Source: a virus
Lineage: Duplodnaviria; Caudoviricetes
IMG/VR virus record: IMGVR_UViG_3300049043_000067
Location: 269-64,268 of that record
Reading direction: 5' to 3' (one strand)
Length of the DNA stretch: 64,000 nucleotides
Shown here: positions 2,486-64,000 of the stretch, one piece after another
Layout: each line of letters starts with the position of its first letter
Position numbering within the stretch: position 1 is the stretch's first letter
The notes under the pieces: model-generated
Databases searched by the model: none
Told to the model about the DNA's origin: nothing
Seen by the model: the letters and a program-made list of their open reading frames with translations, nothing else
Position numbers and translations under genes: made by a program

Positions 2486-3169
2486 TTACCGGGTCAGCTT
2501 TCTCGTGCCGTGGATCACGACCTGCCGCGCGGTCCAGCTCAGCGCGGTCTCTGGCTTCGCGCCGAAGCCCCGGATATTCGTGCCCCGGTACCGGCCGACG
2601 TACCCGGTCTGCGGCGTGTGCTTGTTGGCCCCGCTCTCGTGGTAAATAATTTCGAAAAGGTCGTACTCCCCGATCTGGTCAACGAGCTTAGCGCGCGCGA
2701 TGAACCGGCGACCGATGACCCCGCCGCCCACGGCTTCGGCGTGCTGCTTCCAGAGCACGCTGATGTTGCACACGGATCCGGGTCTGGTTGATGGCAGGAT
2801 GCCGGAGTGCTTGCCTAGCGCGACGTCAACCATCACATCGGCCGCATGCCGCGCGTCGAGGATCCTGTCGGCGACGGGGTTGTACACGGCGCGCTCGCGC
2901 AGGATCGCGCGCGACCGCCGGATGGTTTCGCGGCAGCCCCAGATCAACTTCAGGCACCCCTTAAACCACGACTGATCGTGATCAGGCAGCGGCGGCCAGT
3001 AATCGAGGTCAGTGAACTCATACCCACTCGATGACGCCGTAATGTTCTTCTTGAACGCATCCCGGAACCGGCGGACATCCTCGCTGGGTAGTTGCTGGGT
3101 GATGACATTGAGCTGGGTCCGGATCTTGTTTTTCAGTGACCGGATGGCATTCACGTTGTTGAGGCTCAT
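2486..3169 (-). CDS. hypothetical protein (early operon)
   Basis: 227-aa ORF with AGGAGA RBS. Confidence 0.7.
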   Translation of the reverse strand: MSLNNVNAIRSLKNKIRTQLNVITQQLPSEDVRRFRDAFKKNITASSSGYEFTDLDYWPPLPDHDQSWFKGCLKLIWGCRETIRRSRAILRERAVYNPVADRILDARHAADVMVDVALGKHSGILPSTRPGSVCNISVLWKQHAEAVGGGVIGRRFIARAKLVDQIGEYDLFEIIYHESGANKHTPQTGYVGRYRGTNIRGFGAKPETALSWTARQVVIHGTRKLTR

Positions 3170-4693: not shown

Positions 4694-4750
4694 GCTGCTA
4701 GTGCAGCGGGGAAGGCCCGCCTCGCGGCGGGCCCTCTGGCGCTAAACTAG
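4694..4750 (-). ncRNA. repeated intergenic RNA hairpin motif A, copy 2
   Basis: CUAGUUUAGCG-cca-GAGGGCCCGCC-gcga-GGCGGGCCUUC-cc-CGCUGCACUAG-CAGC. Confidence 0.75.
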
Positions 4751-6862: not shown

Positions 6863-6921
6863 GCTGCGCTAGTGCAGCGGGGAAGGCCCGCCCTAAGGCA
6901 GGCCCTCTGACGCTAGACTAG
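6863..6921 (-). ncRNA. repeated intergenic RNA hairpin motif A, copy 1
   Basis: CUAGUCUAGCG-uca-GAGGGCCUGCC-uuag-GGCGGGCCUUC-cc-CGCUGCACUAG-CGCAGC. Confidence 0.75.
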
Positions 6922-42900: not shown

Positions 42901-42904
42901 ATGA

Positions 42905-45900: not shown

Positions 45901-48900
45901 AGAACGCGAAGGATTGGGACCCGAACGGGCCGGAGACGGAAGAGGACGCAATCGAGGCAGAGGCTATGCGCCGCTTGCAGGTGTTGCGACTGTCAAGGGT
46001 GCGACCGGGCCAGACCCGGGGCTCGTGGACGTCGCGGAGTCTTATGCACTTGCCGCAGGCATCCCGCATCGTCGGCAAGCTGAATACGTCGAAGTAGACC
46101 CCGAGCGCGCCGCGCGCATCGCGGACGCTTACGCGGAGATGAAGCACGACCCTCAGAACCCTGAGGTGAAGGAAGCGTATGCGGATCTGATCCGCCAGAC
46201 AAAAGACCAGTATCAGGCGCTGGTTGACGCTGGATACAAGTTTACATTCTTTGATAGTGCTACGGACCCGTACGAGGGGAATCCGTATGGCGCGATGCGC
46301 GACCTGCGGTCAAAAAAGCAGATGGCCGTTTATGGAACGTACGACGGCTATGGAACCGAAGGAATTACCGGCGCGGCAATCGAAGACAATCCGATGCTTG
46401 AGCCAACAGGTCTTCGGTGGCCAGATCAAAAAGGGTTCATGCGCCCAGTCACAGCGAACGACCTGTTCCGTGCGGTTCACGACGCGTTTGGACACGGGCT
46501 TGAGGGGGCAGGGTTCAGGGCGCGCGGCGAGGAGAACGCGTGGCAGGCGCATGTCAGGTTGTTCACCGGCCCCGCAGTCAAGGCCATCACATCGGAGACG
46601 CGTGGTCAGAACTCGTGGCTGAACTTCGGTCCGTACGGAGAGAAGAACCGGACGGCAAAGCTGGAAGACACGGTATTTGCTGAGCAGAAGACCGGCATCA
46701 TGCCGGAGTGGACGTGGACAGAGGGTCTCGCCCCGGATGAGGTGATGGAGTCTAAGTCCGTTGGATATAACGATCCGGATCCCGGCGAAGCCACCGCTGT
46801 AGAGCGCGGGATTCAGGGAAAGTCTTTTGACAACGCGCTTCGGTGGGTCGCTGAGAATGCGCCAACGGAAGATTACAAGGAGATCGCTCGCGGCGTAGAG
46901 CGGACAATGCTGGCCCTCAAGGGGAAGGGTTACAAGTTCTCGATAAAGGTTGCTCACATTGGCGACTCGGTTCCTTCGACGCTTATAGGCAGTCGCGGCA
47001 TTGCAAAGGTAAACGTTAACACCGGAAATACAGAGGTCTGGCTTAATGGCGCTGATGTCACCGGGTCAGTCGGCGTAAGCTACGAGACCGCGCTGCATGA
47101 GATGATCCACGCCGTTACTATGGCGTCGCTGTGGGCTGGGAATCTCAAGTCAATGGACGGCACGAAGGTCCAGAAATTCACCACCGATCTGTACGCCGTA
47201 TCAAACGCGGTAAGGGCTGAGTTCAATAAGCGGGTCCGCGAGGTTGGCGTTGACGGCCTGTCTGATTTCGAGGCGAAGGTTTATAATCGCCTGAACAATG
47301 CAATCAACACCGTCGATGAGATCCTCGCGTGGGGTCTTACCAACCGCGAGATGCAGCGATGGCTTGATACAATACCGTACAATAACAAGACGCTGTGGGC
47401 GTCCCTTGTTGACGCAATCCGTCGGCTGCTCGGGATAAGCAGCGACAGGCAGACTGCGCTGTCTGAGATAATCAGCATTGGAGACAACCTGCTGAGCCCG
47501 GACATTGTGTCGGATCTTCCTCAGATTCCGGCACCGGCGTCGCCACAGCGCGGCGGCGCTGCCGCAGCAACAAGCGCCCGAATTGACATCCCCGCAGAGT
47601 TCCAGAATGGCCGTGGCGGTATCGACTTCTCTCGCCGCAACCTAGAACTCCACACGATGTTCACGGACAACGTCCTGCCTGAGGACGTCAGTGGCAGGCC
47701 GTTCCCGGACAAAAGCGGGACTTACGTCGAGTACCAGATCAGACCTAAGGGCAAGGTCAAGGAGCTGGGTCAGCTATATGGCAGTGTGCCGGAGAGTGAC
47801 CCGACTACATTCTACGTCGAGTGGGCGAGCTTTGACCCAGACGACATGACGATGGCCGAGACAATCGGTCTGATCAACTTGCTGGGAAAAGATTTCCCAA
47901 ACATCAGGACCATCACCGGCAAGCGGATCTCTGGCGCGAGATACGAGAACCGATCAGAGCGTGCGAAGGCTGCACTGAAAAGGATGTCGGCTGCCGAGAA
48001 GGCGTTATCTATTGAGCTGATGGCGCGCACAGACGCGTCAACCGACGCCGCCGAGAAGGCATTCCGCAAGCGGTTTTTGGTGCTGCACCTCGCTCACCCC
48101 GAGCTGGTAATCAACGCGGCACGTCGTGACTTGCCTGACCTATTCAATGAAGACACACAAGCCAGCCGCGAGTATTACCTCGCTAAGGCTCTGGCCGAAC
48201 AGGTGTCGAAGCTGAGCACGGAGCAGACCATCAACGTCGGGCGCATGCGCGACCGCGGCATGCTGGATTTCTCCCGTCGCCAGAAGTCAGTGATTGCCAC
48301 CGTCGAAAAGACGAAGGCTGAAAAGAAGTCTATGGCTCAGCGGATCGCTGACCTGAACAGTGAAATTCAGAGCAAGCCTCACTTGTTTGAGGCGATCATA
48401 AATGTGTACGGCGATCAGGTCATGATCCCGCGTGAGATCACGCGGGGCGCACCAGAGATCAGGCGCATCCTGCCATACCTGAGCACGGAAGAGATCGGCA
48501 CGACCAATGCTGTCGGTGCACGCGGCCTGATCCAGATGTTCAATAGCGTTCCCAGCAAGGAAGAGATGGCGGCTGTAGCCATCAGCGGCAGGGCGAAGCG
48601 CGGGTGGTATGAGAACTCGGCACGGGCACTGATCAGCGTGTTCGGTAGGGAAGACGCTCCTAGGTTCTCGGCACTACTGGCGGCGCTGTCTCCGCAGACG
48701 TCCGTTCAGGACAACGCGATCAACGCCTTGAATGTCTGGGTGAACTGGGACAAAGCCGGTCGCCCGACGGACAGGGCGACAATCATGCGCATTATGGGCC
48801 AGAGTGTTCAGGGCACGAAGGGCGAAGGCTCGGTGCTCGGCGCGTGGAAGAGTAACTCGGTCACCGCATTGCAGGCGCTCGACCCGCACTCGATCATTAT

Positions 48901-51900
48901 CAGCGGGAACAAGGTCAACTCGTTCATGAAGAACCTGAACGATGTCGTGAACGCGGTGACAAACGACGCGTGGATGGCGAACTACGCGGACGTCGATCAG
49001 GACAGGTTCAAGGGCGCGTCCTATCACGGATACAGCGCGAAGGTCCGGCAGGCGGCGGAGGTTGCAACCGAGCTGACAGGCTACGTGTGGACGCCGCGCG
49101 AGATACAGGAGACTGTCTGGTCGTGGGCAAAGACAACGTATGAGCTGCGCAAGAAGTTCAGGGAAATGCAGGTGGAGGTGCGTCCGTTGGAGATCTGCTG
49201 CGCGCTGGCAGGGTAACCAACGCGATGATCGCCAACACGCCTGATTTCGCCACACTGTTTACAGACGGCGTCTACAGGAACATACTTGAGCGCGGCGGTT
49301 ACGGACAACAGATCGACAGGATCATCAATGACAACCGAATTACAAAAGGCTCTGGATCGCTTGATGCAGCATTTGGCCAGCGGTCCGTCTATGACGCCGA
49401 AGGAACAGGCATTGCTGAAACTACTTACCGAGGATACCTCGACACAGCCGCCGGACGTCTTGAGCAGCGATACCAGCGACGCAAGGCAGAGGCCGCCGCA
49501 AAAAAGCAGCAAGGTCTAGAACTCGACGAAGGCGAAGACGCCGACGCAGACTACTCGCGCAGGCTGGTGGACAGCACCGAGTTCATCGAATGGTTTGGTG
49601 ACAGCAAGGTTGTCGGATCCGACGGCAAGCCGCTCGTGGTGTTCCACCGGGACATCGCAGGCTGACATATTTGAGCTTGTCAGATCCGCCTTCGGAATAC
49701 ACGTCGCGCGCGCATTGATCAGGCGGAAGACAGGTTCACCGGCCTCGGGCGGGCGCAGGCGTCGTTTACCCGCTGTACGCGCAGGACAACGAACCCGCTG
49801 CAGGCTGGTCATGAATTGCGAAACGCAGCTGGGCATGATCCGGTTTACAATCGACAGCCAGCGGGCGTGCTGGCGGTATCCTGTCTGATCGAAAACCCGT
49901 ACATATTCGAGCGCTCCGGCAGAAGACCGGCGCAAGATGAAAGAGCATCCAATCGGACGAGCGGTCAGGCTGACGCGGAAGGTGGCCGTACCCCATCAAT
50001 GCGTGGATCAGGGCAAGAACTTAAGGCTTCGGGGCATGCTGGCATCGCGCAATGCGGTCACGACGGCGGGGCCTCGCTGGGCGACGCGCATGCGATGGGC
50101 TCGTTCATTGCGTTTGACCCGGAGCCAGATCAAGTCAGCCATCGGCAACCGCGGCACGTTCGGCCTGAACGAGAAGCGCATCGACTACTCGCGCCGCCCG
50201 AACCCGCTGACGCCGCAGGAAGTGTCTGAGGTAACTGACCGCCTGAGATACGGACTGATCCGCGACCAGATCGCGAACGCCCTGTCGCGCACGAAGAAGT
50301 ACACCGGCATCGACGAAGAGATCGCCAAAAAGAAGAGCAGCAAATTCTACGAGAACTTCATCGACCACGCGCTCCCGCTGGGCGATATGGTCGATATGGT
50401 CCGCGAGAAGAAGGGCTCCATCCCTGACATGTTCGACGCCTACCTTGCCCAGCAACTCTGGTCATCGAAGGCAACGGACCACCTGAAGCGTCTGGAGCGC
50501 AGCCTCTACAGCCCGATCTACCGCGCGATCCGCGGGCTGCAGGTATCTGACGCCGACGTCGCTGATTTCAAGAAACGCTTCCCGTCTCCTGGCCAAAGTC
50601 ATAGACGCGTCCGGGGACAACCGGAACGGCACGCTGTCGGCCCTGCTCTACGCCCGTCACGCGCCAGAGCGAAACCTCGTAATCAATTCTATGAACGAGG
50701 GCCTGATGCCAAACGGATCCGGCGTGCCCACCGCGGAGGCCAACGCCGCCGTGAAATGGTTCGAGAACCGGATGGACTCGGGACAAGTATCGCGAGGCCG
50801 AGATGCTCGTCCGCAAGGTTGTCGATGAGACGAACAACATCCGCGTGAAGTACGGCCTGACGCCTGACTTCAGGAAGATGCAGGCCAACCCGCATTTCCA
50901 GAAGGCGGGACTGCCGAACGGATACAAGTACTACGTCCCCCTGCGCGGCATCATCGAAGAAGACATGCTGCCCAACGATCTAGAGCTTCAGCGCCTGCGG
51001 ACTGGTGTCGGGTTCAAGCTGAACTCGAAGGAAGACCTCACCGCGATGGGCCGTGACAAGCTGGCCAACGCAGTGGTCGAGCATGTCATCCTGCAGAACG
51101 AGGTGTCGGTTGTCCGGGCGCACAAGAATCAGGTCGGCAACTCGCTGTACAATCTGGTCAACGCGAACCGCGACATGTTCAAGGGCATCCTTGAGATCGT
51201 TGAGAAGGCTCCGACGATTCGCCGGGTCGGGAAGGAAGACGGCATCGTCAGGCTGATGCCGGATGCAAACTACATGAACTCCGACGAGTACTTCGTCACG
51301 AAGATCGGCGGCGAGAACAAGGTGATCAAGATCATTGATCCGCGTCTGGCTCGCATCCTGAACGGCAACACCGGGTACGGTGACGAGGGCCTGCAGAAGG
51401 TGGTGAACTTCATCGGCGGATACACCCGTCTGATGAGCCGACTGGCTACCGGCCTGAACCCTGAGTTCTGGATGAAGAACACGCCGCGCGACGTGATGCT
51501 GGCGTCGATCAACATCAATCAGTACGGCATACCCGGACTGTCGGATGCGCTGGTAAAGAACTGGATCCCGGCGTGGCGGGCAGCCAAACGGGCCAACGCG
51601 TCGGACTGGAACTACGTCAAGACAGGCGAGGAGAAGTACGTCCCGCCCGTCACCGAAGACGACAAGATGTACGCCGAGTTTCTGGAAGATGGCGGCTTCA
51701 CCGGGTACCTCGGGCTTCATGATCTTGAGACGCGCATCGCGGACATCAACAAGCAGATCACGAAGGGCGAGGGCAGCAAGCTCGCCGAGGGCATCGAGGT
51801 CGTGAAGCGCTTCGGGGACTTTGTCGAATCTTACAACAACGTGCTGGAGAACGCGACGCGCTTCGCCGTGTACAAGACGCTGCGTGAGGCGGGCATGCCC

Positions 51901-53154
51901 CGTGATCGTGCGGCTCAGGCAGGCAAGACGGTGACGACCAACTTCAATGCCGGTGGTTGGTACAAGAACATGATCAACCCGTTCTACATGTTCTACAACG
52001 CCAGCATTCAGGGGTCGATTGGCATTCTCACGGCGGGCGTCAGATCGAAGGCGGTGCGCAAGATTATGGGCGGCATCATTGTCGCTGGCACCTGCAGGAC
52101 TCGTCGATGGCGGCACTGAGCGACGAGGACGAGACCGGCGCGCTCAAGTACGACAACATCAAGGAGCACGTGCACCGCACGCACATGATCTTCCTCGACC
52201 TGACCGGCATGACGAACGACGGCTTCATCAAGGTGCCGATGCCGTACACGTTCAACGCAATATTTAACTTCGGCCGGGCGATGGCGAAGTACGCACGCCA
52301 TCAGGCAACGGGCGGTGACTTCGATCTGGCGAAAGCGGCGGAACAGCTCGCTCGGCACGCTGATTGATGCGACCAATCCGCTGGGCGGGGACGAACTGCC
52401 GATGAACTTTGTCGCGCCGACGTTCCTGAGATCCGGTCGTCGACCTGACAATTAACAAGGACTTCGCGGATCGCATGATCGTGAAGCGCCCGATGGGTAC
52501 AGGCGTGGACCTGCCGTCGAGCCAGCTCTACCTGAACAGCACGTCGCCGATGTTTGTCAGCATTGCCGAGTTCATTAACAGCTACACCGGCGGCACGGAC
52601 GTCATACCGGGCTACGTCGATATGTCTCCCGACGCGATGCAGTACCTGTTCGAGTACTACCTCGGCGGCGCGGGTGCCTTCGTGCGACGCGTCGCGGACT
52701 TCGGCAGCGTGGGCGTGCCGTCGGCGCTGCAGGGTGAGTTCGATGACATCGAGGTCGGTCAGGTGCCGTTCGTCCGGGCGTGGGTCGGTCAGGCCCCGTC
52801 CGGTGCGCCAGATGGAACGCTACCTCGAAGTACGCGACGAGATCCTGATGATCGGCAAGGAGCTGGAGACAGCGGCCAAAGCCTCCGACATAGAGCGGGT
52901 CAGGAGTGTCCCGTGAGAATTACCAGAAGCAATTACAAGTTTACGGTGTAGTTAAGGGGGCCGACCGCCAGCGCGCGTCGATCACCAAAAAGATTGCGCA
53001 GATCAAGAGCAACGACCGGCTCTCGGCGGACGTGAAGAAGGACCTCATCAAGCGCCTCCGCGAGCAGGAGGAGCAGGCGATGAACCGGGCAGTCACCGCC
53101 TACAACCGTGTCGTCGAAGGCATGAGCATCCCAACCGCAGGAGAACTCCAGTGA
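42905..53154 (+). CDS. giant polyvalent internal virion protein (~3,400 aa if frameshifts are repaired)
   Basis: HEFVH and HEMIH zincin motifs, FRAVHD..GH domain, WY...LSPQT...KV.SF...VTND glycosylase-like domain, WFGDSKVV..DGKPLVVFH...QIKSAIGNRGTF ART-like domain, LPD38-like C-terminus. Confidence 0.7.
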
Positions 53155-53533
53155 CCACCTTCGCCGAGCGCACCAAACGCAGCCTGAAGGGGTGCACCCC
53201 GATCTGGTTAAGGTCATCGAGCTGGCACTCAAGACCTCCTCCGTGCCCTTTCTGGTGACCGAGGGCCTGAGGACCATCGCCCGGCAGCGGGAGCTGGTGG
53301 CGGCCGGGGCCTCGACCACGATGAACAGCAGGCACATCACGGGTCACGCCGTCGATATCGTGCCCATCGTGGGTGGTAGTATCTGTTGGAAGACACCGGC
53401 ATTCAAACAACCGTTGGACGCCATCCGGCAGGCAGCCAAAAAACTCAAGGTTAATGTCGAATTTGGCGCTGACTGGCGGTCCTTCAAGGATTATCCTCAC
53501 GTCCAGTTAAGTCGCAAATCACACCCGGTGTAG
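53151..53533 (+). CDS. endolysin, M15 family L-Ala-D-Glu peptidase (frameshift near 53190)
   Basis: VTEGLRT..RQ..L...GAS.TMNSRHITGHAVD...GADW..FKDYPHVQL. Confidence 0.9.
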
Positions 53534-53806
53534 CCTCATGACATACGCAGACGCGATCATTGCCGCCTTTACCGCGGCCACAGTCCTGACCAGCGCCAGT
53601 CTCGTTGCGTACACGCGACACCGAGCGACAGCGACAAATCCTACCAATCGGTAGATAGTGCTGGAAAATCGATAAACTTGATCAGATCGAGCGGCGTCTG
53701 GATGAGGCGATCAAGCGCCAAAAAGAAATCATCATCAAGATCGAAAAGATTAACGCCGTGAAGGACGCGAAGAAGTCTCAACAGACTGAGTCGGGACAAG
53801 ACGGGA

Positions 53807-54061
53807 ATGAAGATTGACCTTCACGCAACCAGCACAGTCGTTGCGATCCTCGGGCTGCTGATCACAATCATGCTGGGCTCGATGTGGATGGGCGAGCTAT
53901 CCAACTCAGTGACGTACCTGAAACAAACCACAGTGAATGGCGAGCGCATCGCGCGGATTGAGGCGAGGCTCGAAGCGCTGGTGGACGGCCAGTCAAGGCT
54001 GTCCCTTGCCATCGACAGCCTCGCCACTCGCATCGACCAGACCGAAAACAGACCGCGATAA
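53807..54061 (+). CDS. holin-like protein (one TM helix plus coiled coil)
   Basis: N-terminal hydrophobic helix and RIARIEARLE coiled coil; near the endolysin. Confidence 0.5.
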   Translation: MKIDLHATSTVVAILGLLITIMLGSMWMGELSNSVTYLKQTTVNGERIARIEARLEALVDGQSRLSLAIDSLATRIDQTENRPR

Positions 54062-54214
54062 CGCGACCTCTTCGAGGGCGATGCTGAGCAGACTGGTCGC
54101 AAAGCGCACAGCCTGCTCAGGCGTCATCGTGTGCAGGACGCAGTCGTGGTTCTCGGCAATCACGATCTCCGCCCGCCCCTGACCAGTGGCCCGGGGATAC
54201 ACAATCAGCATTAC

Positions 54215-54673
54215 TTATCCTCCTTCGTACCTCGCAGCGGGATCATGTGGTAGATCTCCGCCCACTGGTACGCCTTGCACGCGACCTTCACCGGCGGGCG
54301 GGGTGCCGCGCCGAAGATGTATCCGGTCACGAACACGCGCGAAATAACAACGATCTTGAATGCAGTGTCGTTCATTTTTGGTCTCTCCTGTCTGATGAGG
54401 TCCGTGCTCTCCGCCGACCTGTTTCTTCTTCCTAGGCGCTGAACTAAGCGGGTAGTCCGTACCCTGCGGGTCACCTTCCTCGTACACGGCATTGTGCCTG
54501 ATCCCTTCGATCATGCTCATCGCTGCGCGGCGTGCCGCCGAGCGGAAGCTGTACTCGATTGATGACCGGGCCAGTATAGACCCGACCGGGTTAATAAATT
54601 CCCAAAGCCATCCGTCATCACCGCGGCGATAAACGAGCCTGAACATCTTTTTGTTCGTGCGGGTCTTTCTCAC
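54215..54673 (-). CDS. YegP/DUF1508-like small protein (probably read through into the next gene by a frameshift)
   Basis: F....R..DGW.W.F....G.ILARS...Y..RSAARRA. Confidence 0.5.
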   Translation of the reverse strand: MRKTRTNKKMFRLVYRRGDDGWLWEFINPVGSILARSSIEYSFRSAARRAAMSMIEGIRHNAVYEEGDPQGTDYPLSSAPRKKKQVGGEHGPHQTGETKNERHCIQDRCYFARVRDRIHLRRGTPPAGEGRVQGVPVGGDLPHDPAARYEGG

Positions 54674-55518
54674 AGTTTCTCAAGCCTCTCGATTGCGTTG
54701 GTTGTCAGCTTCGATTTGTTGGCTGACTTGATGTACTTCATCGTCGTCGTCGTTGACTGGTGCCCGGTGACCGACATGATCTCCGGCATCGAGCAGCCTG
54801 CCTCGGCGAGGCGTGTGGCGCAGAACTTCCTGAGGCCGTGGAACGGCTTGCTCACCCCGATCTTCCGGCAATACCTCATGTAAACCCGGTAGAAGGAATG
54901 CTTCGTCACCTTGCCGAAAAGCGGCTTGCTCGACAGCGCGCGCTTCACGAGGTCGAGGTTCGCCGTCGAGGCGGTGAGCGGCATGTCAATCACCGCGCCC
55001 GTTTTGGACTGCGTGTACGCGAGATGTACACGGTCATTCTGCTTGTAGAAATTCAGGTGGTTCAGCGAGAGGATGTCGCCGCGACGCATGCCGGTGCCTG
55101 CCGCAAACAGGACGATGTCACGCATCACCCCGAACTCAGGGCCAGAGATCGCCTTGTCAACGTCCTGTGGCGTCCACGGTTCCCACTCGCCGACAATCTT
55201 CACGGCGCAGCGCGACCACGGCACGCCGCCGGTGATCTTGCCGCGCTTGCGAGCGTAGTTGATTGCCGCAGACGCGAGGTTCATGACCTGAGACTTGACG
55301 CCAACAGGCAAGGTCATGTTACCGATGTCGTCAGGCGACAGCGCCGCCGCGCTGCGGTCTCCGTAAGAACTTATCAACGTCGTCGCCGCGCGTGCGTAGA
55401 TGCGGCGCGTCTCAGGTGCGAGTTCAAACCACCTCACGGCAAGGTAGTGCCTCGTTATCGCGCTGACAGATCCGGCCTTGTCGGTGTCTGTAATTTGTAG
55501 CTCATCAGGTATGGTCAT
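54670..55518 (-). CDS. tyrosine recombinase / integrase-family protein
   Basis: Catalytic set TGMR(R), SK(T), HGLR, GH, Y (KYIK). Confidence 0.9.
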   Translation of the reverse strand: MTIPDELQITDTDKAGSVSAITRHYLAVRWFELAPETRRIYARAATTLISSYGDRSAAALSPDDIGNMTLPVGVKSQVMNLASAAINYARKRGKITGGVPWSRCAVKIVGEWEPWTPQDVDKAISGPEFGVMRDIVLFAAGTGMRRGDILSLNHLNFYKQNDRVHLAYTQSKTGAVIDMPLTASTANLDLVKRALSSKPLFGKVTKHSFYRVYMRYCRKIGVSKPFHGLRKFCATRLAEAGCSMPEIMSVTGHQSTTTTMKYIKSANKSKLTTNAIERLEKL

Positions 55519-55530
55519 AGTTCCCTCCTC

Positions 55531-56034
55531 CTAGCAGTGTATGTTACCGAACCCGCCGTGCTCGAACGCCGAGACGGGTATGGTCATCATGATCCCCTTG
55601 TCCTGAGGATCGTTGCGGTCAACGCGACCGCCAAAGAAAAACCCCGGCTTGAAGCCAGCCTCGCTCTTGTAAGGCGAACCCGGGTAAAAGATTTTGGGCA
55701 GGTCAAGCCACCTGACCTCGCCGTGGCAATCGCGAACGACAAGCCACACCTGCAGCCCCATCATTACGTGAATGGCCAGCACGCAGAACTTGTCGCAATC
55801 AATGAGCGCGCCACCGTATCGGCTCATCTTCTCCCACGACCAGTCATCCGCCCGGCACTTGACCTCGATCACGCCGATCACGCGCCGCGATCCGCGCTGG
55901 ATCATCACGTGATCAATGGCCGAGAACTTCTTCGGCACCTTCTCGTAGTCGTATCCCTTCTCGTCGGCGAACAGCCGGGCAACCTCGGCCTCGCGATCAA
56001 TATCAGCCTGCGTCTCGTATCCGTCCGACCTCAT
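55531..56034 (-). CDS. PD-(D/E)xK nuclease-family protein
   Basis: E..VA...ID.V......IEVKCR; GGR.DRNDPQD. Confidence 0.7.
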   Translation of the reverse strand: MRSDGYETQADIDREAEVARLFADEKGYDYEKVPKKFSAIDHVMIQRGSRRVIGVIEVKCRADDWSWEKMSRYGGALIDCDKFCVLAIHVMMGLQVWLVVRDCHGEVRWLDLPKIFYPGSPYKSEAGFKPGFFFGGRVDRNDPQDKGIMMTIPVSAFEHGGFGNIHC

Positions 56035-56465
56035 TAGCGCAGCTCCGTTTCGAACTGGTTAACCAGTTTCATGAATTTGTCCCGCGCAGACTGATTAACC
56101 TTAAGATCAGCCCGGCTGGTTATGTTCAGGTATCGGCGCAAGGCGGCGGCTGCGTGGTCTTCGCTCACGTCATCGGCCAGACCGTTGTTCAACAGCCAGA
56201 CCTGAAACTCCTGACGCGCGCACAGCATCGCCGCCATCGTCACCACCTTGCGGGCCTTGTCGGCTTCCGGGTTAGGAATTACAGACCCGTCATCGCCAGT
56301 GCGCACCATTGCCACAACGTACCGTGCGCCAACCCAGTCACGGAGCAGGCTTTCAGGCACGTCGTTGGGATGGATGCTCAGCTTGAGGACGTACCCGTTT
56401 TTGTCTTGCGTGATGCTGAGCTTGACGGCTTCGAAATTGACGGCGTCATCGCTGGGGTTTGGCAC
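56034..56465 (-). CDS. conserved hypothetical protein
   Basis: 143 aa; FQ.WL...LRRYLNITSRADL..N..AR motif. Confidence 0.65.
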   Translation of the reverse strand: MPNPSDDAVNFEAVKLSITQDKNGYVLKLSIHPNDVPESLLRDWVGARYVVAMVRTGDDGSVIPNPEADKARKVVTMAAMLCARQEFQVWLLNNGLADDVSEDHAAAALRRYLNITSRADLKVNQSARDKFMKLVNQFETELR

Positions 56466-56589
56466 TCCTGTATCTCCTTCTCAATGAGCGCGGCTGTGCG
56501 CTTCAGTATGTTGTTGGCCCTGTTTGCAATCTCTGCGTCGAGTGGTGCGAGCTTGTCGCGACGATCACCAACCAGCCACATGACAGTCT

Positions 56590-56943
56590 TCAGGTGCTCT
56601 TTGACTTCTTCCAGTCTCTGTAAGTTGTCTCTGCCCATTTGATTGCGTCTATCCCCCTGAGCGACCACCACAGCATCTCATCTATGCCACCCTGATGCAG
56701 GTCCATATGGCAGCGGTGGCACAGTGGCACCGCCCACTTGTCGCTGCTCTTCAGTCCCATACCCTTCTCACCCACCCGCTGAATGTGATGCGCTGATGGG
56801 TAAGGGCTCCGACACGCGAGGCACGGAGAACTCCTCACGTGCCGGAGATACGCAGGCTCAGATCGCTCCGAGCCCGCCTTGTTAGAACGGGATCTCGTCA
56901 GACGAGCCACCGCCAGCTCCCTGTCTCGGGGTGTCAGCCTCAA
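56590..56943 (-). CDS. DUF968-like (HNH-fold) protein
   Basis: YLRHVR..PCLAC...AHH...GMGLK.SD.WAVPLCHRCH..LH; start uncertain. Confidence 0.75.
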   Translation of the reverse strand: MRLTPRDRELAVARLTRSRSNKAGSERSEPAYLRHVRSSPCLACRSPYPSAHHIQRVGEKGMGLKSSDKWAVPLCHRCHMDLHQGGIDEMLWWSLRGIDAIKWAETTYRDWKKSKST

Positions 56944-57157
56944 CCTTCAGGCTCAGGAACTTATTGCCGTTGTTTGAGGTCTTGCTCCACGCGACGACAC
57001 GCACCTTTGCGGGCTGCTTGCCGTTGACCAGACCGGCCAGATGCCGGACCAGTTCAGGCGACAGGACGATGTCACCGCGCAAGTCTGGGGCCTTGTCGCT
57101 GGTCTTCTTGTTGTTGGTAAACAGTGCGCCCGAGTCGGGCCTCGTTTCGAAAGCCAT
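56882..57157 (-). CDS. small single-stranded DNA-binding protein
   Basis: GALF.N..K....PD..G...AW.K......FLSL and acidic DEIPF C-terminal tail. Confidence 0.75.
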   Translation of the reverse strand: MAFETRPDSGALFTNNKKTSDKAPDLRGDIVLSPELVRHLAGLVNGKQPAKVRVVAWSKTSNNGNKFLSLKVEADTPRQGAGGGSSDEIPF

Positions 57158-57858
57158 AGTCTCTCCTCCTTCAGTTCTGCCTCGCGGCGGGTAAACAGTT
57201 CCTTGATTTCGTTGAACGATTTCTCGTTCGACTTCTTCAGGTCGGCGAACGCTGCGCTGTTCGCTGTCCAGAATTTCATAAGGTCATCGACCGTGCTGCA
57301 CTCAGGCAGGAAGGTCTTGACCACCTCGACAAACAACGGCTCGCTGCCGCTCTTGCCGGGCACCTCAACGACAGCGTCGCCAGCCTGCGTGGGGATGGCA
57401 ACCTCGACGGTCTCCTTCACGGGCTCCTTAGGCACGACCTTCAGGTGCTCGCGCTTCGCCTCGGCGATGTCGATCTCGTTGGCCGATGCGTATTCACCGC
57501 CGTGCAGACCGAGTGCCGCCAGCGCGCGACCGATTGCCGATGTCTCGGCGTTCTCGATGGCGCTGGTCTGGTTCACGTAAGACTTGCTCCGCCATTCCTC
57601 GGCGTGACCTGTCGCGACAATGCTGCCTTCGCCGTTGCGGATGACAGCCTTGACCAGCACAGGCTCGTCGGCACTGTTCGGGTTATAATTCACCAGCTCG
57701 GTGGTGATCCGGTAGTAGTCGCCAGACACACGACGCAGCGCCTCGATGCGGTCGGCCACCACCGTGTAGAGCTTGCCGCCCTTCTGCTTGATGCCGCGCT
57801 TTTCCTTCAGGCTCTGGATCATGTCCAGCATCTGGTTGATGTTTTCCGTGTTACTCAT
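56953..57858 (-). CDS. single-strand annealing protein-like recombinase (true end probably near 57160)
   Basis: GKLY..VADRI...ATGHAEE.R...VN.TSAIENAETSAIGRALAALG..G.EYASA.E; lies between the exonuclease and SSB genes. Confidence 0.65.
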   Translation of the reverse strand: MSNTENINQMLDMIQSLKEKRGIKQKGGKLYTVVADRIEALRRVSGDYYRITTELVNYNPNSADEPVLVKAVIRNGEGSIVATGHAEEWRSKSYVNQTSAIENAETSAIGRALAALGLHGGEYASANEIDIAEAKREHLKVVPKEPVKETVEVAIPTQAGDAVVEVPGKSGSEPLFVEVVKTFLPECSTVDDLMKFWTANSAAFADLKKSNEKSFNEIKELFTRREAELKEERLWLSKRGPTRAHCLPTTRRPATRPQTCAVTSSCRLNWSGIWPVWSTASSPQRCVSSRGARPQTTAISS

Positions 57859-58064
57859 GCTCGGTCTCCTTTTAGGGCAAGGTTTGCAATCTCAACGCAC
57901 GTGCCCGCCGTGTGTTTGCCGCTAGCGATGTTAGTCAGCGCCGCGCGCAGGCGCTCGATCTCGTGCGCAGCTTCCAAAATTGCGTTAGCGAGACCGTCGC
58001 GACCCTCTTGACGCTGTTGCCACGCTAGAATTTTTGTCCGCTCAGCGATTTCGCTGAAGAGCAC
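57855..58064 (-). CDS. small hypothetical protein
   Basis: EAAHEIERLRAAL motif; ATGA coupling to the next gene. Confidence 0.5.
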   Translation of the reverse strand: MLFSEIAERTKILAWQQRQEGRDGLANAILEAAHEIERLRAALTNIASGKHTAGTCVEIANLALKGDRA

Positions 58065-58078
58065 CGACTTGATCCACC

Positions 58079-58459
58079 CTATAATTCCTCTTCGCCGGAG
58101 CCGTTGCCGTAGCCGTAGCCGTCGCCGTAGCCGGAGCCGTTGCCGTCGCCGTAGCCGTTGCCGCTGCCGTCGCCGTCGCCGTAGCCGTAGCCGTCGCCGT
58201 AGCCGGAGCCGGAGCCGTTGCCGTCGCCGTCGCCGTCGCCGTTGCCGTCGCGCCGTAGCCGGAGCCGGAGCCGTAGCCGGAGCCGGAGCCGTTGCCGTCG
58301 CCGTAGCCGGAGCCGAAGCCGGAGCCGTAGCCGGAGCCGAAGCCGAGAGCCGTAGCCGGAGCCGAAGCCGGAGCCGGAGCCGGAGCCGAAGCCGTTGCCG
58401 TCGCCGTCGCCGTAGCCGGAGCCGAAGCCGGAGCCGGAGCCGTCGCTTAGTGTGCCCAT
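58079..58459 (-). CDS. Gly-X repeat protein (G-S/D/Y/N/F)n, with compensating indels
   Basis: Tandem GGC-NNN hexamers; the central RLRLR stretch is the same repeat read out of frame. Confidence 0.75.
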   Translation of the reverse strand: MGTLSDGSGSGFGSGYGDGDGNGFGSGSGSGFGSGYGSRLRLRLRLRLRLRLRRRQRLRLRLRLRLRLRRDGNGDGDGDGNGSGSGYGDGYGYGDGDGSGNGYGDGNGSGYGDGYGYGNGSGEEEL

Positions 58460-58729
58460 TTCGCGGCCTCGATAGAGGCGACTGCCTCAGGGGTGCAGTC
58501 GATAATTTCGATTGCTTCCGTCAGAGTGATTGAGACGGGCACCGCGACGCGGGACTTTTTATCGTCAAAACCGCTCGTTGCGATCTCGCTGAGGGTGTTG
58601 GCTCCCGACCACGACCAGATCCGCCGCGAGCGGACAAGATCGACCTCGCGCCCTTCGCGGCGGACGCAGGTATCCGAAATGGACACCAGCGGAATACGTT
58701 CTGACGATTACTGCTTTGTGGTCAGTCAT
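58447..58729 (-). CDS. DUF6948-like Sm-fold protein (frameshift near 58668)
   Basis: VIVRTYSAGVHFG...RRIWSW.GA.TLSEIA..G...LTEAIEIIDC...A..SI. Confidence 0.75.
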
Positions 58730-58733
58730 TGGT

Positions 58734-59073
58734 TCAGTCTCCTGTGAAAGTTGGTCTGCTGTTTTCAGTTACCGAGGATTCCTCGGCAGCTGGGGCTTGA
58801 CAGTCATGCTGCGTCCAATCCTTTAAAAGTTGGTCACGGGTTTTTCTCCCGCTTTCTCTCTCAGCCTGCATCCCGTTTTCCAGCCCGGTCAGATAAACGG
58901 ACAGGATAGCTTCGTGGAACGCACAGCCTGTGTTGCTTGCCCTCGTAAACACATCGAAGGCAAGGTTTCCCAAATGCTCCTTCATGCCGTCTGGCATGGC
59001 CACGCGGTCGAAGCCGTCAGGGCTTCATGCCCCGGCGCATGAGTTGCCAATCAACTATGTGTTTGTGGGCCAT
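58734..59073 (-). CDS. hypothetical protein (possible frameshift)
   Basis: Extended RBS before the ATG at 59073; ORF 58734..59003. Confidence 0.45.
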
Positions 59074-59499
59074 ACCTCCCCCTCCTCCTCGCCGCTGGCC
59101 GCTGCCGTCGCCAATCTTATTGACCATTAGTTGAGATCGCCACATCCGGCGGGATCAACGGCAAGAACATAGCCCTCCCACGCTCGGGCATCACCCTCGG
59201 CCCTTTTGAATGACCGATAGACGCCGACCGCCATATCATGTCCATTCCTGTCTTTGCAGATCACGACAAATCGCATAACTGATGCCTCCCTCCTCCGCTG
59301 CCGTCACTAACGACCGTTATCTCGGTCACTGTTGTCGTTACTGCCTAAACCAATGGCCCGCCGGACTATTGCCAGCGTGTTGCGCTCGCTGCGCCGGTCA
59401 CTCGGGGACCGGCTCAGTGTCAGCACCATCGACCGACCCGTCGCCGGATCACGTCACCCTGACCACCGCGTGCTTGTTTTCCCTTAGAACTTCGACGCT

Positions 59500-60296
59500 T
59501 AGGTTTAGGTCCGTCAGGAACCTCAGTCGCTTCTTTTCCATCCTGCTCCTCCTTAAAGCGCGCCCACTGCGCGCAGGTAATCCTGCACGTCGCAGTAGTT
59601 CCTGCAACGGATCGGGTCCCCATCCCTGAGCCAGCGATCCTCATCGCTGCACTCAGGTCATTCTTCGTCCATATGAAGGGCGGACGACGCCTGCATCAGG
59701 CCCATCACCCGCTCCTCGACCCAGCGCGTCTGGTCCTCGTAGGACCACACAGGGATCTCGGCCATCACCACCGGTGCCGGTGGGTAGACCTTGCGACGCG
59801 TCACGTCAGTGAGCCGCCAGTCCCTCAGGATGGCGCAGACATGCAGGCTCTCGACCTCCAGCCCCTTCTCCTTGCGGAGCAGGTCGGCGTAGGCATTGAG
59901 CTGCTGTTCCCACTCCGGCTTCGGTCGGCTGACCGAATAGACCGACGTGAACTTGTAGTCGATGATCCCGACCTTGCCGTTCTGGTGACGTTGCAGGTCG
60001 ATCTGACCTGAGATGCGCATGCCGTGGACCTCGGTGTGGATCCGCTCCTCGACGACGTGATCCTCGGCGGTCGCGCCTTCGAGGATCTTGTGAATGTTCG
60101 AGCCCATCAGGGCCCAGAACCTGTCGCTCAGGTCCTCCTTCGCCGCGATGGCCTCGGCATGCTCAGACCGCAGCACCGCGATTTTCGCGGGGCTAACGAG
60201 TTGTGTTACACTCCAGTGGCTCGCGCCTTTGGAGTATTGCTGACGCCCAAACAGGGCGACGAAGGGTGCCGGGAGATTGTGTCTGTTGCTGATCAT
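59500..60296 (-). CDS. PD-(D/E)xK (Cas4-like) exonuclease (frameshift near 59660)
   Basis: SVTQL, G..IH..LE, ISGQIDL, IIDYK, QLNAY; C-terminal RC..YC....C in the shifted frame; 3' end approximate. Confidence 0.8.
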
Positions 60297-60302
60297 GCGG
60301 AC

Positions 60303-60331
60303 AGGTTATTGAAGGACATTCCGAATGTCAA
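60303..60331 (-). promoter_or_regulatory. promoter of the recombination operon (leaderless) with a palindromic operator
   Basis: TTGACA-17bp-TAACCT, then 6 nt, then the ATG at 60296; palindrome GACATTC-c-GAATGTC at 60315-60329. Confidence 0.7.
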
Positions 60332-60385
60332 CTGAGTCGGGCAGAATTATTTCAGGCCGCACAAGGCGCCGGTGGTGTCAGGCTG

Positions 60386-60784
60386 GTGATATTTGGGGAG
60401 CCAGCCAGCAAGGCGAACAGCCGGATCGTGCGGGTCATTCGCGGGCGGGTGCTGAATATCAAGAGCCAGAAGGCTCAGGGATACAAGGCCCAGTTCCTGA
60501 AGCAGTGCCCGGTTATTGATCCGATGTTAACCGGTGACCTGTCGGTAACTATCAGCATATACTACGCATCACGCAGGCCTGATTTGGACCCGAGCCTGAT
60601 ACTGGATCTTATGCAGGAGAGGATTTACCTGAATGACCGGCAAGTCAAAGAGCAGCACCTCTACTGGGGCCTCGACCCGGAGAACCCGCGCGCCGAAATT
60701 CTTGTCGAACAAAGAGCTGAAGCAGCACTACCGAAAGAAATACGCGGAGCGAAAGGTCGAGGAAAAGCGCGCGCTACTGGCTAG
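60386..60784 (+). CDS. rusA: RusA-like Holliday junction resolvase
   Basis: GEPASKANSR...RRPDLD...ILD.MQ..IYLNDRQV......DPENPRAEI. Confidence 0.8.
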   Translation: MIFGEPASKANSRIVRVIRGRVLNIKSQKAQGYKAQFLKQCPVIDPMLTGDLSVTISIYYASRRPDLDPSLILDLMQERIYLNDRQVKEQHLYWGLDPENPRAEILVEQRAEAALPKEIRGAKGRGKARATG

Positions 60785-61013
60785 CGTGCTTATTCAGGCG
60801 ATCAAGGACGCGGGATGGGGCGGTGTCCGGGAACGCAACGACGTCATCAGGTGGCTGTCGAAGATAGACGACTTCCGCCGCATCGTTGAGCCGCTCGGCC
60901 TCAATGCCGAGGATGTCCGCATGCAAATAGCTAATTTGTTCAGGGTCTCACCGGCGCTGTCGGTGCATTACGCACAGCAACTGATCGCTCGGATAAAGAA
61001 AAATATCGGGTAG
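60633..61013 (+). CDS. hypothetical protein
   Basis: L..SVL.QAIKDA...WL...DF..I....G motif; start uncertain. Confidence 0.55.
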   Translation: MTGKSKSSTSTGASTRRTRAPKFLSNKELKQHYRKKYAERKVEEKRALLASVLIQAIKDAGWGGVRERNDVIRWLSKIDDFRRIVEPLGLNAEDVRMQIANLFRVSPALSVHYAQQLIARIKKNIG

Positions 61014-61107
61014 GCATGCCACCGTCAAACAGCACACCCACCCGATAAGTTGCCGTTACCACAACGGACGGAGGAGACTACACATGATCACGGTTGGTTA
61101 GGCCGTG
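60995..61107 (-). ncRNA. candidate ~110-nt sRNA with an anti-SD/anti-AUG seed
   Basis: Upstream promoter; seed UCAUGUGUAGUCUCCUCC (61087-61070); terminal 17-bp hairpin (61047-61004, five G-U pairs on this strand) followed by UUUUUCUUU. Confidence 0.5.
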
Positions 61108-61112
61108 GTATT

Positions 61113-61141
61113 TACATACCATCGAGCCGGTAGTACCGCAA
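61113..61141 (-). promoter_or_regulatory. promoter for the candidate sRNA
   Basis: TTGCGG-17bp-TATGTA with an extended -10 TG. Confidence 0.45.
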
Positions 61142-61386
61142 CAGGGCAAGCAGCTCGTTAACTGACTCTTTCTTGAATTTGTTTTTTGTTAAGCATGATC
61201 CAGTCCCGGCTCGGAATGCCGTTGGATCTTTCCACGCTTACCGTCGCTGATCCCGAGCTGATCGTCGTAGAACATCACAGCTTCTACAGGGCCGTAGATT
61301 TCAGATCTTTCTGACGTATGGTTTACACGCTGGTACAAGGCCCGACGAGTTAGGCTTCAGCATCTCAAGACAATCCTGTTCCCGAC

Positions 61387-61468
61387 GCTGTTCTCAGCGC
61401 TGTGCTCAGCAGATGCTTCGCTTGTGGCGAAGCATCGACAGCCAACCGACAGCCAAACCGACAGCCAA
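61387..61468. repeat. cluster of direct repeats and palindromes (candidate origin)
   Basis: GCTGT(T/G)CTCAGC x2 (61387, 61399); 10-bp inverted repeat at 61412-61436; CGACAGCCAA x3 (61436, 61447, 61459). Confidence 0.7.
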
Positions 61469-61494
61469 AAAAAGAGCGCAGCCCCGAAGCTGCG
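61467..61494 (-). terminator. intrinsic terminator
   Basis: CGCAGCT-tcgg-GGCTGCG-ctc-TTTTTTT on the minus strand. Confidence 0.7.
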
Positions 61495-61960
61495 TTTCTT
61501 CAGACCAGAGGTCTTCGGAAAACTTGCCTTCTCTGTACGCATTTCACAGAACAGCCAGTGTAATCTGCAGATAGATCCGAGGGACAGAGCAGACACACTC
61601 CCCCTTCCGGAGAAGCGTGTCAGCGTGACCTGCAGATGAGTCGTCGGTCCGTCGCTTTAACACAATCACACAAGGATTTAAGGGGCGGTCACCCTGCCCC
61701 GCAGTACGGTCTCCGGCTTTTCCTGCTCACGTCTGACGGTGCACCCGGGTACCGTGTGATTAGCATCCCAGATGGCTACCCGGGCTGTACGGGTTCTTTT
61801 TTCAGGCGTTGCCGTCCGGAAGTCCGAGCCCTCAGGCCCTCGACCGGCCGGGTTTCCCGGGGGTTGTCGGCTATGACGTGTCGCAGCAAGACCCTGCCGC
61901 GCCACCACAGTCCGTCCCGTTTCTCACAGATCCGGCGGCCAGTCAACTGTTTCAGATGAA
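61467..61960 (-). ncRNA. candidate ~490-nt structured non-coding RNA
   Basis: No credible ORF; stems with GNRA loops and minus-strand G-U pairs (e.g. GACACGCUUCUCC-ggaa-GGGGGAGUGUGUC); ends in a terminator; 5' end approximate. Confidence 0.55.
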
Positions 61961-62033
61961 ACAGTTTCAGTTGTAACTAAATTTCACAAGCATTTATGTG
62001 GTAACGGGATGTTAGCTGGTCCTCGTTACTCTG

Positions 62034-62062
62034 TTGACATCCGGTAGCCGCACGGCAAGATT
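62034..62062 (+). promoter_or_regulatory. promoter of the primase-helicase gene
   Basis: TTGACA-17bp-AAGATT. Confidence 0.45.
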
Positions 62063-62114
62063 GCCCTTGCCTGTTGCCGCTGTTCGCCCCAGTATCAGGA
62101 CCCCGCAGGAACAC

Positions 62115-63810
62115 GTGATCCCGTCAGAAATCTCCCGTCTTGTCCCCCATTCCGTCGGCCAGTGGCGTGCCGCCGTGTGCCCGTGGTGTGCCAAGACCCG
62201 GAGCCCGAGGCACCGCCGGGTCCCGACCCTGAGCGTGGTCAGGAACCCGGACGAATCGGTGGGGTGGCATTGCAATCACTGCGGCGAGAAGGAAGAGGCG
62301 AGATGTTTCAGGAAGAGGTTACGGTTAAGCCTGTGCCCCGCAGCCAGCGTCAGGAACGAACGGATCAGGCGCTATCGTTTCTGGGGCAGCGCGGTATCTC
62401 CGAGCCCGTCGCAAAGAAGTACGGATGCTATCAGGTCAGCCGGTATTTCACAGGATCCGGACGTGAAGAACCGGCGGTGGCGTTCCCCGTCCTGTACAAG
62501 GGGGCCGAGGCCAGCGTTAAGTACCGGGCGGTATCGGGTAAGCACTTCGCCGCGTCTGGTTCGCCGCCCGTTCTGTTTCGGCCTGAACCTGCATGACCCC
62601 AGCAACAAGACCGTGATCATCTCTGAAGGTGAGATCGACGCGCTGTCGTGGGCCGAGGCAGGTGTCAGCAACAGCTTCTCGGTACCGACAGGGGCATCCG
62701 TGTCCGAGCAGGAGAAGGGCTGGCTGTGGCTGAGCCGCGAGGTCTTCGACCAGTCGGAGCGCATCATCCTCGCCCTCGACAACGACGAACCCGGGCAGGC
62801 CGCCGCCGAGGAGATCGCCCGGCGCATCGGCAAACACCGGGGTCTGGCGTGCGAATACCCGGACGGGTGCAAGGACGCGAACGACGTGCTCACCCGGCAC
62901 GGCAAGGACAGGCTGGTTAAAGTTTACGAGAGCGCCCAGCCGTGGCCCGTGACCGGGCTCTACGACACGAACCACTACACCCAACAGGTCTACGACCTGA
63001 TCGAGAAGGGCGACGACGCCGGGCTCAGCACCGGCCTGACCGGCATAGATGAGATCTATCGGGTAGGCACGGGACAGCTAGTTATGGTTACCGGCATCCC
63101 CGGCTCAGGCAAGAGTCGAGTTCATCGACCAGTTGCTGGTCAACCTCGCCGAGCAGAACGGATGGAAGGCCGCGCTTTGCTCGTTCGAGAACAGTCCGCC
63201 GGAGCACATCAGGAAGCTGGTCGAGAAGCGAGCGCGCGCCACCGCCCCGGCCGCGGCCGAGCTGGACAAGGTTATTGATTGGGTCGCTAAGCATTTCTTT
63301 TTCATCCGTTTCGATGACGGATCACCCGCAACCATCGAGGCAATCCTTGAGCGTGCCCGGGTGGCGGTGCTGCGGTATGGGATCCGGTCGCTGGTCATCG
63401 ACCCGTACAACTACATCACCCGCAATCAGGATGTCAGTGAGACTTTGTACGTATCTGATGCCCTGACCCTGTGTCGCCAGTTTGCGGCCGCCACCGAGTG
63501 CAACGTGTACTTTGTGGCTCACCCGCAGAAGATGGCAAGATCTAACGGATTATCCTATCCGACACCGACAGGTTATGATATATCAGGATCGGCTGCGTGG
63601 TTTGCAAAAGCTGACAGTGGGTTGACTGTCGGCCGGTCCGATGTGCCCGGGTTCTCTGTGGTTACTAGCTGGAAGTCTAGGCACAAGCGTCTCGGCAAGC
63701 TCGGCATTGCAAACGTCGCCTACGACGTCAAGACCGGGAGGTTCTCGGACGCCGATGAACTGCCACCGATAGTTGTAAACACGGATGATGACGATGGGTT
63801 CAACTTGTAG
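62115..63810 (+). CDS. primase-helicase (Zn finger + TOPRIM + DnaB-like; T7 gp4/Twinkle-like; frameshifted)
   Basis: CPWC...WHCNHC; ISEGEIDALS, LALDNDEPG, KDAND; TGIPGSGKS; VIDPYN; VAHP; YDISGSA.W..KAD. Confidence 0.92.
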
Positions 63811-63882
63811 GCCTTGCCGGGAATGTGGGGCAGATATAATTACGCGAGCTCAGGCAGGCTCGGTATTGCTCGGTTTCTTGCC

Positions 63883-64000
63883 AAAATAAGATGCGTTCTA
63901 CGGGTGAACCGCCAGAGGTGCGACCCAAAATCGAAGGTCAGGGAGGCTTCCTGCCCTGTGTGCGGCGGGGTTTTTGCGGGCCGCCAGAACCGGCAAGATT
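63883..64000 (+). CDS. partial ORF with a CxxC motif (runs off the window end)
   Basis: ...REASCPVCGGVFAGRQNRQD; could be the N-terminus of the nuclease at 1-177. Confidence 0.35.

Follow-up and report, generated by a model that had tools for sequence, protein, structure and literature searches.

We analyzed a window of 64,000 nucleotides (nt) from a virus of the Caudoviricetes, comprising bases 269-64268 of the 64,268-bp linear IMG/VR record IMGVR_UViG_3300049043_000067, which is rated 72% complete. Toward its right end, the gene for a T7 gp4-type primase-helicase is preceded by an intergenic stretch of about 1.1 kb (61014-62114, hereinafter the gap) that is poor in open reading frames (ORFs). 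It is larger than the interval 61467-61960, which falls within it and in which a sequence-only reading had proposed one structured minus-strand non-coding RNA (ncRNA) of about 490 nt. No gene is detectable in the gap, where predicted terminators facing either way cluster together with phased repeats, strand-neutral palindromes and an operator-like site. Accordingly, we tentatively favor, at somewhat less than even confidence, its interpretation as a lineage-specific non-coding control or origin-like region, a mosaic of small elements that possibly specifies a short minus-strand RNA. The features in and around the gap are as follows.

61014-62114, strand-neutral: ORF-poor intergenic stretch between the end of a 126-aa gene at 61013 and the primase GTG at 62115.
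60998-61050, minus strand: strong intrinsic terminator predicted by both the terminator scan and the fold, with an 18-20-bp hairpin (61047-61004) followed by TTTTTC.
61053-61063 and 61997-62007: 11-bp perfect inverted repeat bracketing the gap, extending to 24 nt at 79% (61040-61063 and 61997-62020).
61189-61338, minus strand: possible small gene of 49 aa with a TTG start, upstream of the terminator at 61047-61004.
61386-61436, strand-neutral: repeat or palindrome of 12-nt period (61386-61410), then a perfect 10-bp hairpin (61412-61436).
61435-61468, plus strand: three iteron-like direct repeats of 11-12 nt, CCGACAGCCAA, with a period of 11-12 nt.
61467-61500, minus strand: intrinsic terminator with a 7-bp stem (five G-C pairs) and a T7 tail.
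61555-61645, minus strand: 91-nt minus-specific folded domain, built of an outer stem (10 bp), a GGAA-capped stem (13 bp, three of them G-U pairs) and a small hairpin to the side.
61682-61700, both strands: GGGGC..GG hairpin with a GUGA loop on the minus strand and a UCAC loop on the plus strand, the pairing being identical on both.
61739-61802, plus strand: terminator-like element in which UUCUUUUUU comes directly after a long hairpin; the scan found an inner 5-bp version of it.
61865-61915, minus strand: minus-favored hairpin with four G-U pairs (minus z -2.90, 2/200 shuffles; plus z -0.77).
61945-61976, strand-neutral: operator-like site, made of two 10-bp arms in perfect inverted repeat, 2 bp apart, and a third half-site, shortly before the promoter-like site of the primase gene.
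62034-62062, plus strand: promoter-like site for the primase gene (TTGACA, 17 nt, AAGATT), noted by eye and below the scan threshold.
62115, plus strand: GTG start of the primase-helicase, with AGGAA at 62107-62111.

The terminators are the most conspicuous of these elements. The sequence-only reading had placed a clean minus-strand terminator next to a repeat cluster, and our scan finds the same: a stem at 61494-61477 followed by CTCTTTTTTT, which abuts the repeats at 61435-61468. In the plus-strand direction the same hairpin is followed by TTTCTT, and the element may be bidirectional. The features of an intrinsic terminator, namely a G+C-rich stem-loop and then a U-tract, are found in all at 61047-61004 (minus), 61494-61477 (minus) and 61739-61802 (plus). 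The folding z-scores given here are relative to shuffles, judged by a dinucleotide-shuffle criterion; the coordinates of single elements were picked after the folds had been viewed, and hence their z-scores are optimistic. The first terminator, which extends over the stop codon at the end of the 126-aa gene (plus strand), folds at -28.2 kcal/mol on the minus strand (60998-61050; z -6.67, 0/200 shuffles; plus z -3.87). The plus-strand one, which falls inside the proposed minus-strand RNA, folds at -30.6 kcal/mol (61735-61806; z -2.71, 3/200 shuffles; minus z -1.24). The scan found five terminators in 60900-62400 against 1.5 ± 1.2 in shuffles, and of the 12 terminator-like sites that 52000-64000 contains, five lie within this 1.1 kb.

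The repeats and palindromes are likewise local to this region. The direct repeats at 61435-61468 form an array of 12-nt period (2.9 copies, 95% matches), and a pattern search counts three copies with 0-1 mismatch; thus, the array contains the at least three phased direct repeats by which iterons are recognized. The neighboring segment 61380-61440 folds similarly on either strand (plus z -2.90, minus z -2.52), as expected of a DNA palindrome, and three of the window's six matches in a search for the operator-like motif fall at 61945-61976. Two of the stems listed in the sequence-only reading turned out to be paired copies of palindromic DNA words, one ATCTGCAGAT-like at 61563 and 61628, and the other TACCCGGG at 61744 and 61777. 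Because copies of a palindrome pair by construction, these stems are equally readable as protein-binding sites.

The proposal of a single structured ncRNA has to be weighed against this background. It posits a minus-strand transcript of about 490-500 nt, from about 61965 to 61467 and divergent from the primase-helicase, which would be either a large phage ncRNA or a primer/R-loop RNA for an origin at the neighboring repeats. Its stems are real: all of those listed are present in the minus-strand sequence and most also appear in the computed minimum-energy fold, including the 13-bp GGAA-capped stem enclosed by AUCUGCAG/CUGCAGAU, the GUGA-capped GGGGC stem, GCCCGGGUA/UACCCGGGU, and CUGUGGUG/CGUCAUAG enclosing CGCGGCA/UGCUGCG. 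Beyond these and the good terminator at its end, the proposal is favored by minus-specific, G-U-containing hairpins at both ends, one being that at 61865-61915 and the other the domain at 61555-61645 (minus -39.5 kcal/mol, z -4.27, 0/200 shuffles; plus z -0.63, 47/200), by two GNRA-capped hairpins on the minus strand (GGAA and GUGA), and by G exceeding C on the minus strand throughout the gap. An RNA-library contig over 61552-61730 and the empty protein homologue searches, both described below, point the same way. However, the 494-nt minus-strand fold as a whole (-194.3 kcal/mol, z -1.54) is no better than shuffles, 9/100 of which are equally good, while on the plus strand the same interval has a z of -2.47 with 1/100 shuffles as good. 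The ensemble diversity is ordinary, with 8/22 (minus) and 3/22 (plus) shuffles at or below the observed value. Moreover, the central and upstream two thirds of the proposed RNA fold better on the plus strand, which also carries a terminator there.

Strand preference over the gap is in fact a mosaic. The segment 61000-61460 is strongly folded on both strands (minus z -3.77, 0/100 shuffles; plus z -3.00, 0/100), 61467-61660 mainly on the minus strand (z -2.56, 3/200; plus z -0.85, 43/200), and 61660-61975 mainly on the plus strand (z -3.85, 0/100; minus z -1.34, 8/100). The contention that G-U pairs favor the minus strand therefore stands locally, for 61555-61645 and 61865-61915, and fails for 61660-61975 overall, where the plus strand folds better.

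Comparisons with known RNA families, ROOL, GOLLD, HEARO and Proteo-phage-1 among them, gave no assignment: a search of the whole window with Rfam 15 gave 0 matches at the gathering score. With the E-value relaxed to 10, the region 61000-62300 yields just two chance-level matches, one to mir-1994 (E 7.2; 15.5 bits, gathering score 47) and one to Proteo-phage-1 (E 8; 15.7 bits, gathering score 42). The suggested analogy to the ColE1 primer RNAII is weakened because the proposed RNA ends at an intrinsic terminator (stem 61494-61477 plus T7 tail) that immediately precedes the repeats at 61435-61468; a primer RNA would need to reach the origin, and this terminator would release it just short of the repeats. 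In sum, the stems, the terminator and the lack of a credible ORF are borne out; the whole-length fold is not significant, no Rfam family matches and strand preference is mixed. The available positive tests for one large structured ncRNA or an RNAII-like primer are negative or mixed and cannot tell whether such an RNA exists; all told, we regard it as quite improbable.

Sequence from public libraries touches the locus at a few points. Two public runs contain small shares of the stretch, and the parts that they leave uncovered are uninformative. An aquatic metatranscriptome has a 157-nt contig identical to 60928-61084 and a 187-nt contig on 61552-61730 with one mismatch and small indels at 61696-61707, both at a depth of 2-3; the latter covers the domain at 61555-61645. 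A lake DNA run has six identical contigs of 150-220 nt, none of them over the interior of the gap or the frame-break sites of the primase gene. The RNA-library contigs establish that the sequence exists independently, and as to expression they are only a hint.

We next consider whether the region has relatives elsewhere. The gap is single copy in its own record, and blastn against phage and plasmid collections gave no match. Related loci were therefore gathered by means of the proteins, giving 214 loci totaling 1.76 Mb. With the helicase piece as query, 595/599 IMG/VR stretches and 540/591 stretches of JGI metagenomes were relatives; among the best 80 kept from each, helicase identity is at most 51% and 52%, respectively. 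The Toprim piece recovered 49/183 relatives in GTDB genomes, at identities of up to 46%. The 126-aa protein gave 0/30 relatives in IMG/VR, and the PD-(D/E)XK nuclease gave 0/229 in genomes and 5/17 in IMG/VR at 37-38% identity. When the gap was compared with the 214 loci, the best blastn match had an E-value of 1.7 and nhmmer found nothing at E-values up to 10. Neither the repeat pair nor the operator palindrome was matched in exact-motif scans of IMG/VR (0 each). A covariance model built from the single sequence of 61555-61645 (minus) and run on the window and the 214 loci recovered only itself, the other two matches having E-values above 4; thus, the single-ncRNA proposal also lacks a homologue or structural look-alike in this set. 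In the 191 evaluable loci the primase-helicase is encoded in one piece, by an ORF of about 590 aa, and the gap upstream of it, taken as the distance to the next upstream ORF of at least 70 aa (a measure that spurious ORFs could make smaller), never exceeds 371 bp; the 60 largest of these gaps span 109-371 bp. Given these short spacers, the 1.1-kb region is peculiar to this lineage rather than a conserved companion of the gene.

A region of this kind might have arisen by insertion of a non-autonomous element resembling a miniature inverted-repeat transposable element (MITE), about 955-980 bp in length, into a formerly short spacer. The inverted repeat at 61040-61063 and 61997-62020, with its 11 perfect base pairs, does bracket the region, and the spacer left outside it, about 40 bp on one side and about 110 bp on the other, resembles the short gaps of the 191 relatives. 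Nevertheless, by our estimate an 11-bp inverted repeat would occur by chance in 1.4 kb about one time in five; in the window the word has just two copies, and 16/100 shuffles give at least two matches, making its significance marginal. The perfect part lies at the inner rather than the outer end of the arms, no target duplication is seen by eye, and searches of the window, of phage and plasmid collections and of the related loci gave no second copy. We give such an insertion very little credence.

A more serious alternative is that the gap contains at least one orphan protein gene, or the decayed remnants of such genes, masked by frequent frame breaks that stem from sequencing errors or from real decay. 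The contig gives grounds for this concern. The adjacent primase-helicase gene has three frame breaks, the neighboring 126-aa gene is itself an orphan, and overlapping plus-strand frames in the gap run open for 56-131 codons. Aligning the primase-helicases of relatives to the window located the frame changes at 0->2 between 62285 and 62354, 2->0 at 62578-62598, and 0->1 near 63100-63125; they may be either assembly errors or real decay. A comparable pattern is seen at about 40800-53000, where same-strand ORFs in changing frames match different parts of giant phage proteins (e.g., 43618-44274 corresponds to positions 361-530 of 3406 in phrog_2206, 50803-52116 to positions 2711-3091 of 3427 in phrog_14770, and 52475-52948 to Pfam LPD38). 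This segment of about 40.8-53 kb looks like one gene for a 'large polyvalent protein' in which numerous frame breaks have left one stretch of 1566 aa intact.

In view of the frame breaks, we used stop-free pieces from all six frames as queries, and these frameshift-aware searches revealed no conserved gene. The original observation that the interval lacks a credible ORF is borne out as well, the longest ORF in the gap with an ATG, GTG or TTG start being 107 aa. Searches of Pfam and PHROGs with 11 distinct stop-free pieces found nothing below an E-value of 0.05, and word-index searches of 5.8 billion clusters with three pieces found no homologue. A phmmer search with a 131-aa plus-frame piece against 1.84 billion representatives recovered no genuine homologue; we rejected its one match (P0001, E 2e-15) as an artefact, a tenfold tandem repeat of a 61-aa unit in which each unit contributes about 29 bits at 29% identity. 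In tblastn searches with 40 stop-free pieces against the 214 related loci, the best match (E 0.005) was at a non-syntenic location.

Intrinsic measures tell a similar story. The codon scores of the 11 stop-free pieces of at least 55 aa lie within the wrong-frame distribution, with the sole exception of 61192-61356 (minus). The periodicity of GC content by codon position collapses at 60960-62040, though it is low in other coding parts of the window too. The translations of the gap are rich in Arg, Ser, Pro and Cys. ESM recognition was low for two small ORFs, and the ESM Atlas gave nothing usable. On the other side of the ledger, the codon test is weak, as two true coding pieces of the primase likewise score as non-coding, and the one coding-like piece, which holds the small ORF at 61189-61338 (minus), has a codon score of 0.07 that is above 95% of the wrong-frame pieces and unique in the gap; this ORF found no homologue in the Pfam, PHROG and word-index searches. 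We also considered a type I toxin, suggested by a hydrophobic stretch in the minus-strand ORF 61357-61596, and rejected it, as that ORF runs across both the terminator and the repeat array, and its codon score resembles that of a wrong frame. On this evidence we deem hidden genes unlikely, albeit with a chance that carries weight.

We therefore return to the favored interpretation of the gap as a control or origin-like region, for which the following scheme could be envisaged. The terminators would insulate the primase-helicase gene from upstream read-through and would end short transcripts arising from both strands. One such transcript might come from the minus strand and measure about 180 nt (about 61645 to 61467) or a little more; its 3' part would comprise the folded domain at 61555-61645 and the terminator at 61494-61467. 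The repeats and palindromes would be protein-binding sites, serving as operator, origin or both, and would set the timing of primase-helicase expression and the start of replication. Transcription toward the repeats could help their opening, that is, by transcriptional activation rather than priming. Such activation is established for the lambda and T7 origins.

Several observations weigh against this interpretation. Structured windows are only about twice as frequent in the gap as outside it: in unbiased 120-nt windows over 59400-63870, z is -2.9 or lower in 6/66 strand-windows of the gap compared with 10/210 outside, and the mean z is -1.0 (plus) and -1.2 (minus) in the gap compared with -0.6 on both strands outside. 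The RNA-library contigs are shallow and come with no strand or end information, and could derive from contaminating DNA. The promoter scan found no promoter for the proposed transcripts, a result that is uninformative as the scan also misses the promoters of known genes. The expected furniture of an origin is likewise sparse: the gap has no DnaA box, the sole match in the window being at 53491, and its AT-rich stretch is weak, with GC content dropping to about 0.51 at 61100-61399. No binding protein, initiator, repressor or helix-turn-helix (HTH) family was recognized among the 58 ORFs of at least 55 aa in 52.4-64 kb, and iteron binding is not known for gp4-type primase-helicases. Finally, the frame breaks and the codon test that misses true coding pieces leave room for hidden orphan genes.

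The genes around the gap place it within the following setting.

54670-55518, minus strand: integrase (phrog_1, E 8e-29; Pfam Phage_integrase).
55531-56034 and 59658-60296, minus strand: PD-(D/E)XK-type nucleases.
60386-60784, plus strand: RusA.
60633-61013, plus strand: orphan 126-aa gene.
62115-~63810, plus strand: T7 gp4-type primase-helicase with Zn ribbon, Toprim and helicase domains, in three frame changes.

The gap thus separates the early genes, those for RusA and the 126-aa protein, from the primase-helicase gene. The integrase indicates that the phage is temperate. Despite its presence, no HTH, CI-like or Cro-like family was recognized among the 58 ORFs between the virion genes and the contig end (52400-64000); a repressor might be encoded in the 28% of the genome that is missing, be frame-broken, or be of an unrecognized kind. 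Between the integrase and the replication gene no protein repressor is recognizable, and a further possibility is that the primase-helicase, and hence replication or immunity, is controlled by RNA only. Here, two structured RNAs, one from the minus strand with its end at 61467 and the other a plus-strand leader that stops at about 61802, would overlap as convergent antisense partners, tied to the origin-like repeats and following a logic in the style of P4 CI or P1 c4 with unrelated sequences. We consider this analogy-based scheme very unlikely.

Other repeats and structured segments occur elsewhere in the window. At 58052-58470 there is a tandem array of 12-nt period (GCCGTAGCCGGA-like, with at least 23 copies in register) where GC content rises locally to about 0.70-0.76; read on the minus strand, the array falls in an ORF of 126 aa (58079-58459) that has no family match. 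A 54-nt element with an internal G+C-rich hairpin and flanks of the form GCTAGTG...CTAG is present in two copies of 87% identity, at 4697-4750 and 6868-6921, and may be a repeated terminator or regulatory hairpin. The strongest folding in the scanned 4.5 kb is at 59520-59700 (z down to -4.4 on the plus strand and -5.5 on the minus strand); because this segment is situated between the convergent ORFs 59282-59629 (plus) and 59658-60296 (minus), it is probably a bidirectional terminator.

If the favored reading is right, the result is a useful annotation of a control or origin-like region in a poorly sampled freshwater temperate phage. The locus also offers a caution, in that hairpin-rich intergenic DNA, especially where copies of a palindrome pair with each other, can mimic a large structured RNA when judged by eye.

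The elements of the gap can be set beside several known systems. With the large ornate ncRNAs ROOL and GOLLD (PMC12286853, PMC5737381) and HEARO, the proposed large RNA shares the size class and the location in ORF-free phage or prophage DNA. It differs from them in having no covariance-model match up to an E-value of 10, no conserved relatives and no significant global fold. The intrinsic terminators of phage intergenic regions, including bidirectional ones, have the same G+C-rich hairpin directly before a U-tract that is seen here on both strands; what sets this locus apart from the usual case is that three predicted terminators and several other hairpins are found within 1.1 kb with no gene between them.

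The ColE1 RNAII reads into the origin and forms a persistent hybrid that is cut by RNase H. The proposed RNA resembles it as an RNA of several hundred nt with stem-loops whose transcription is directed toward a replication-associated site, but it meets an intrinsic terminator ahead of the repeats and has no sequence or Rfam similarity to RNAII. Iteron-type origins, such as lambda ori and those of plasmids and P4, are alike in their three direct repeats phased at one helical turn, their hairpins and the nearby replication gene. Compared with these, the present region has just 2.9 repeat copies, no DnaA box, no initiator family and a weak AT-rich stretch.

Short, structured, terminator-ended transcripts near the replication genes of temperate phages are exemplified by lambda oop, the P4 CI RNA and P1 c4, and in P4 the operon of the primase-helicase (alpha) is preceded by an immunity region that works through RNA. 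Without sequence similarity to any of these or an Rfam match, the candidate short RNA at 61467-61645 would be similar to them in setting. Should the short RNA from the minus strand prove real, or else the convergent pair, the locus would join them as another independent case of RNA-based control beside a phage replication gene.

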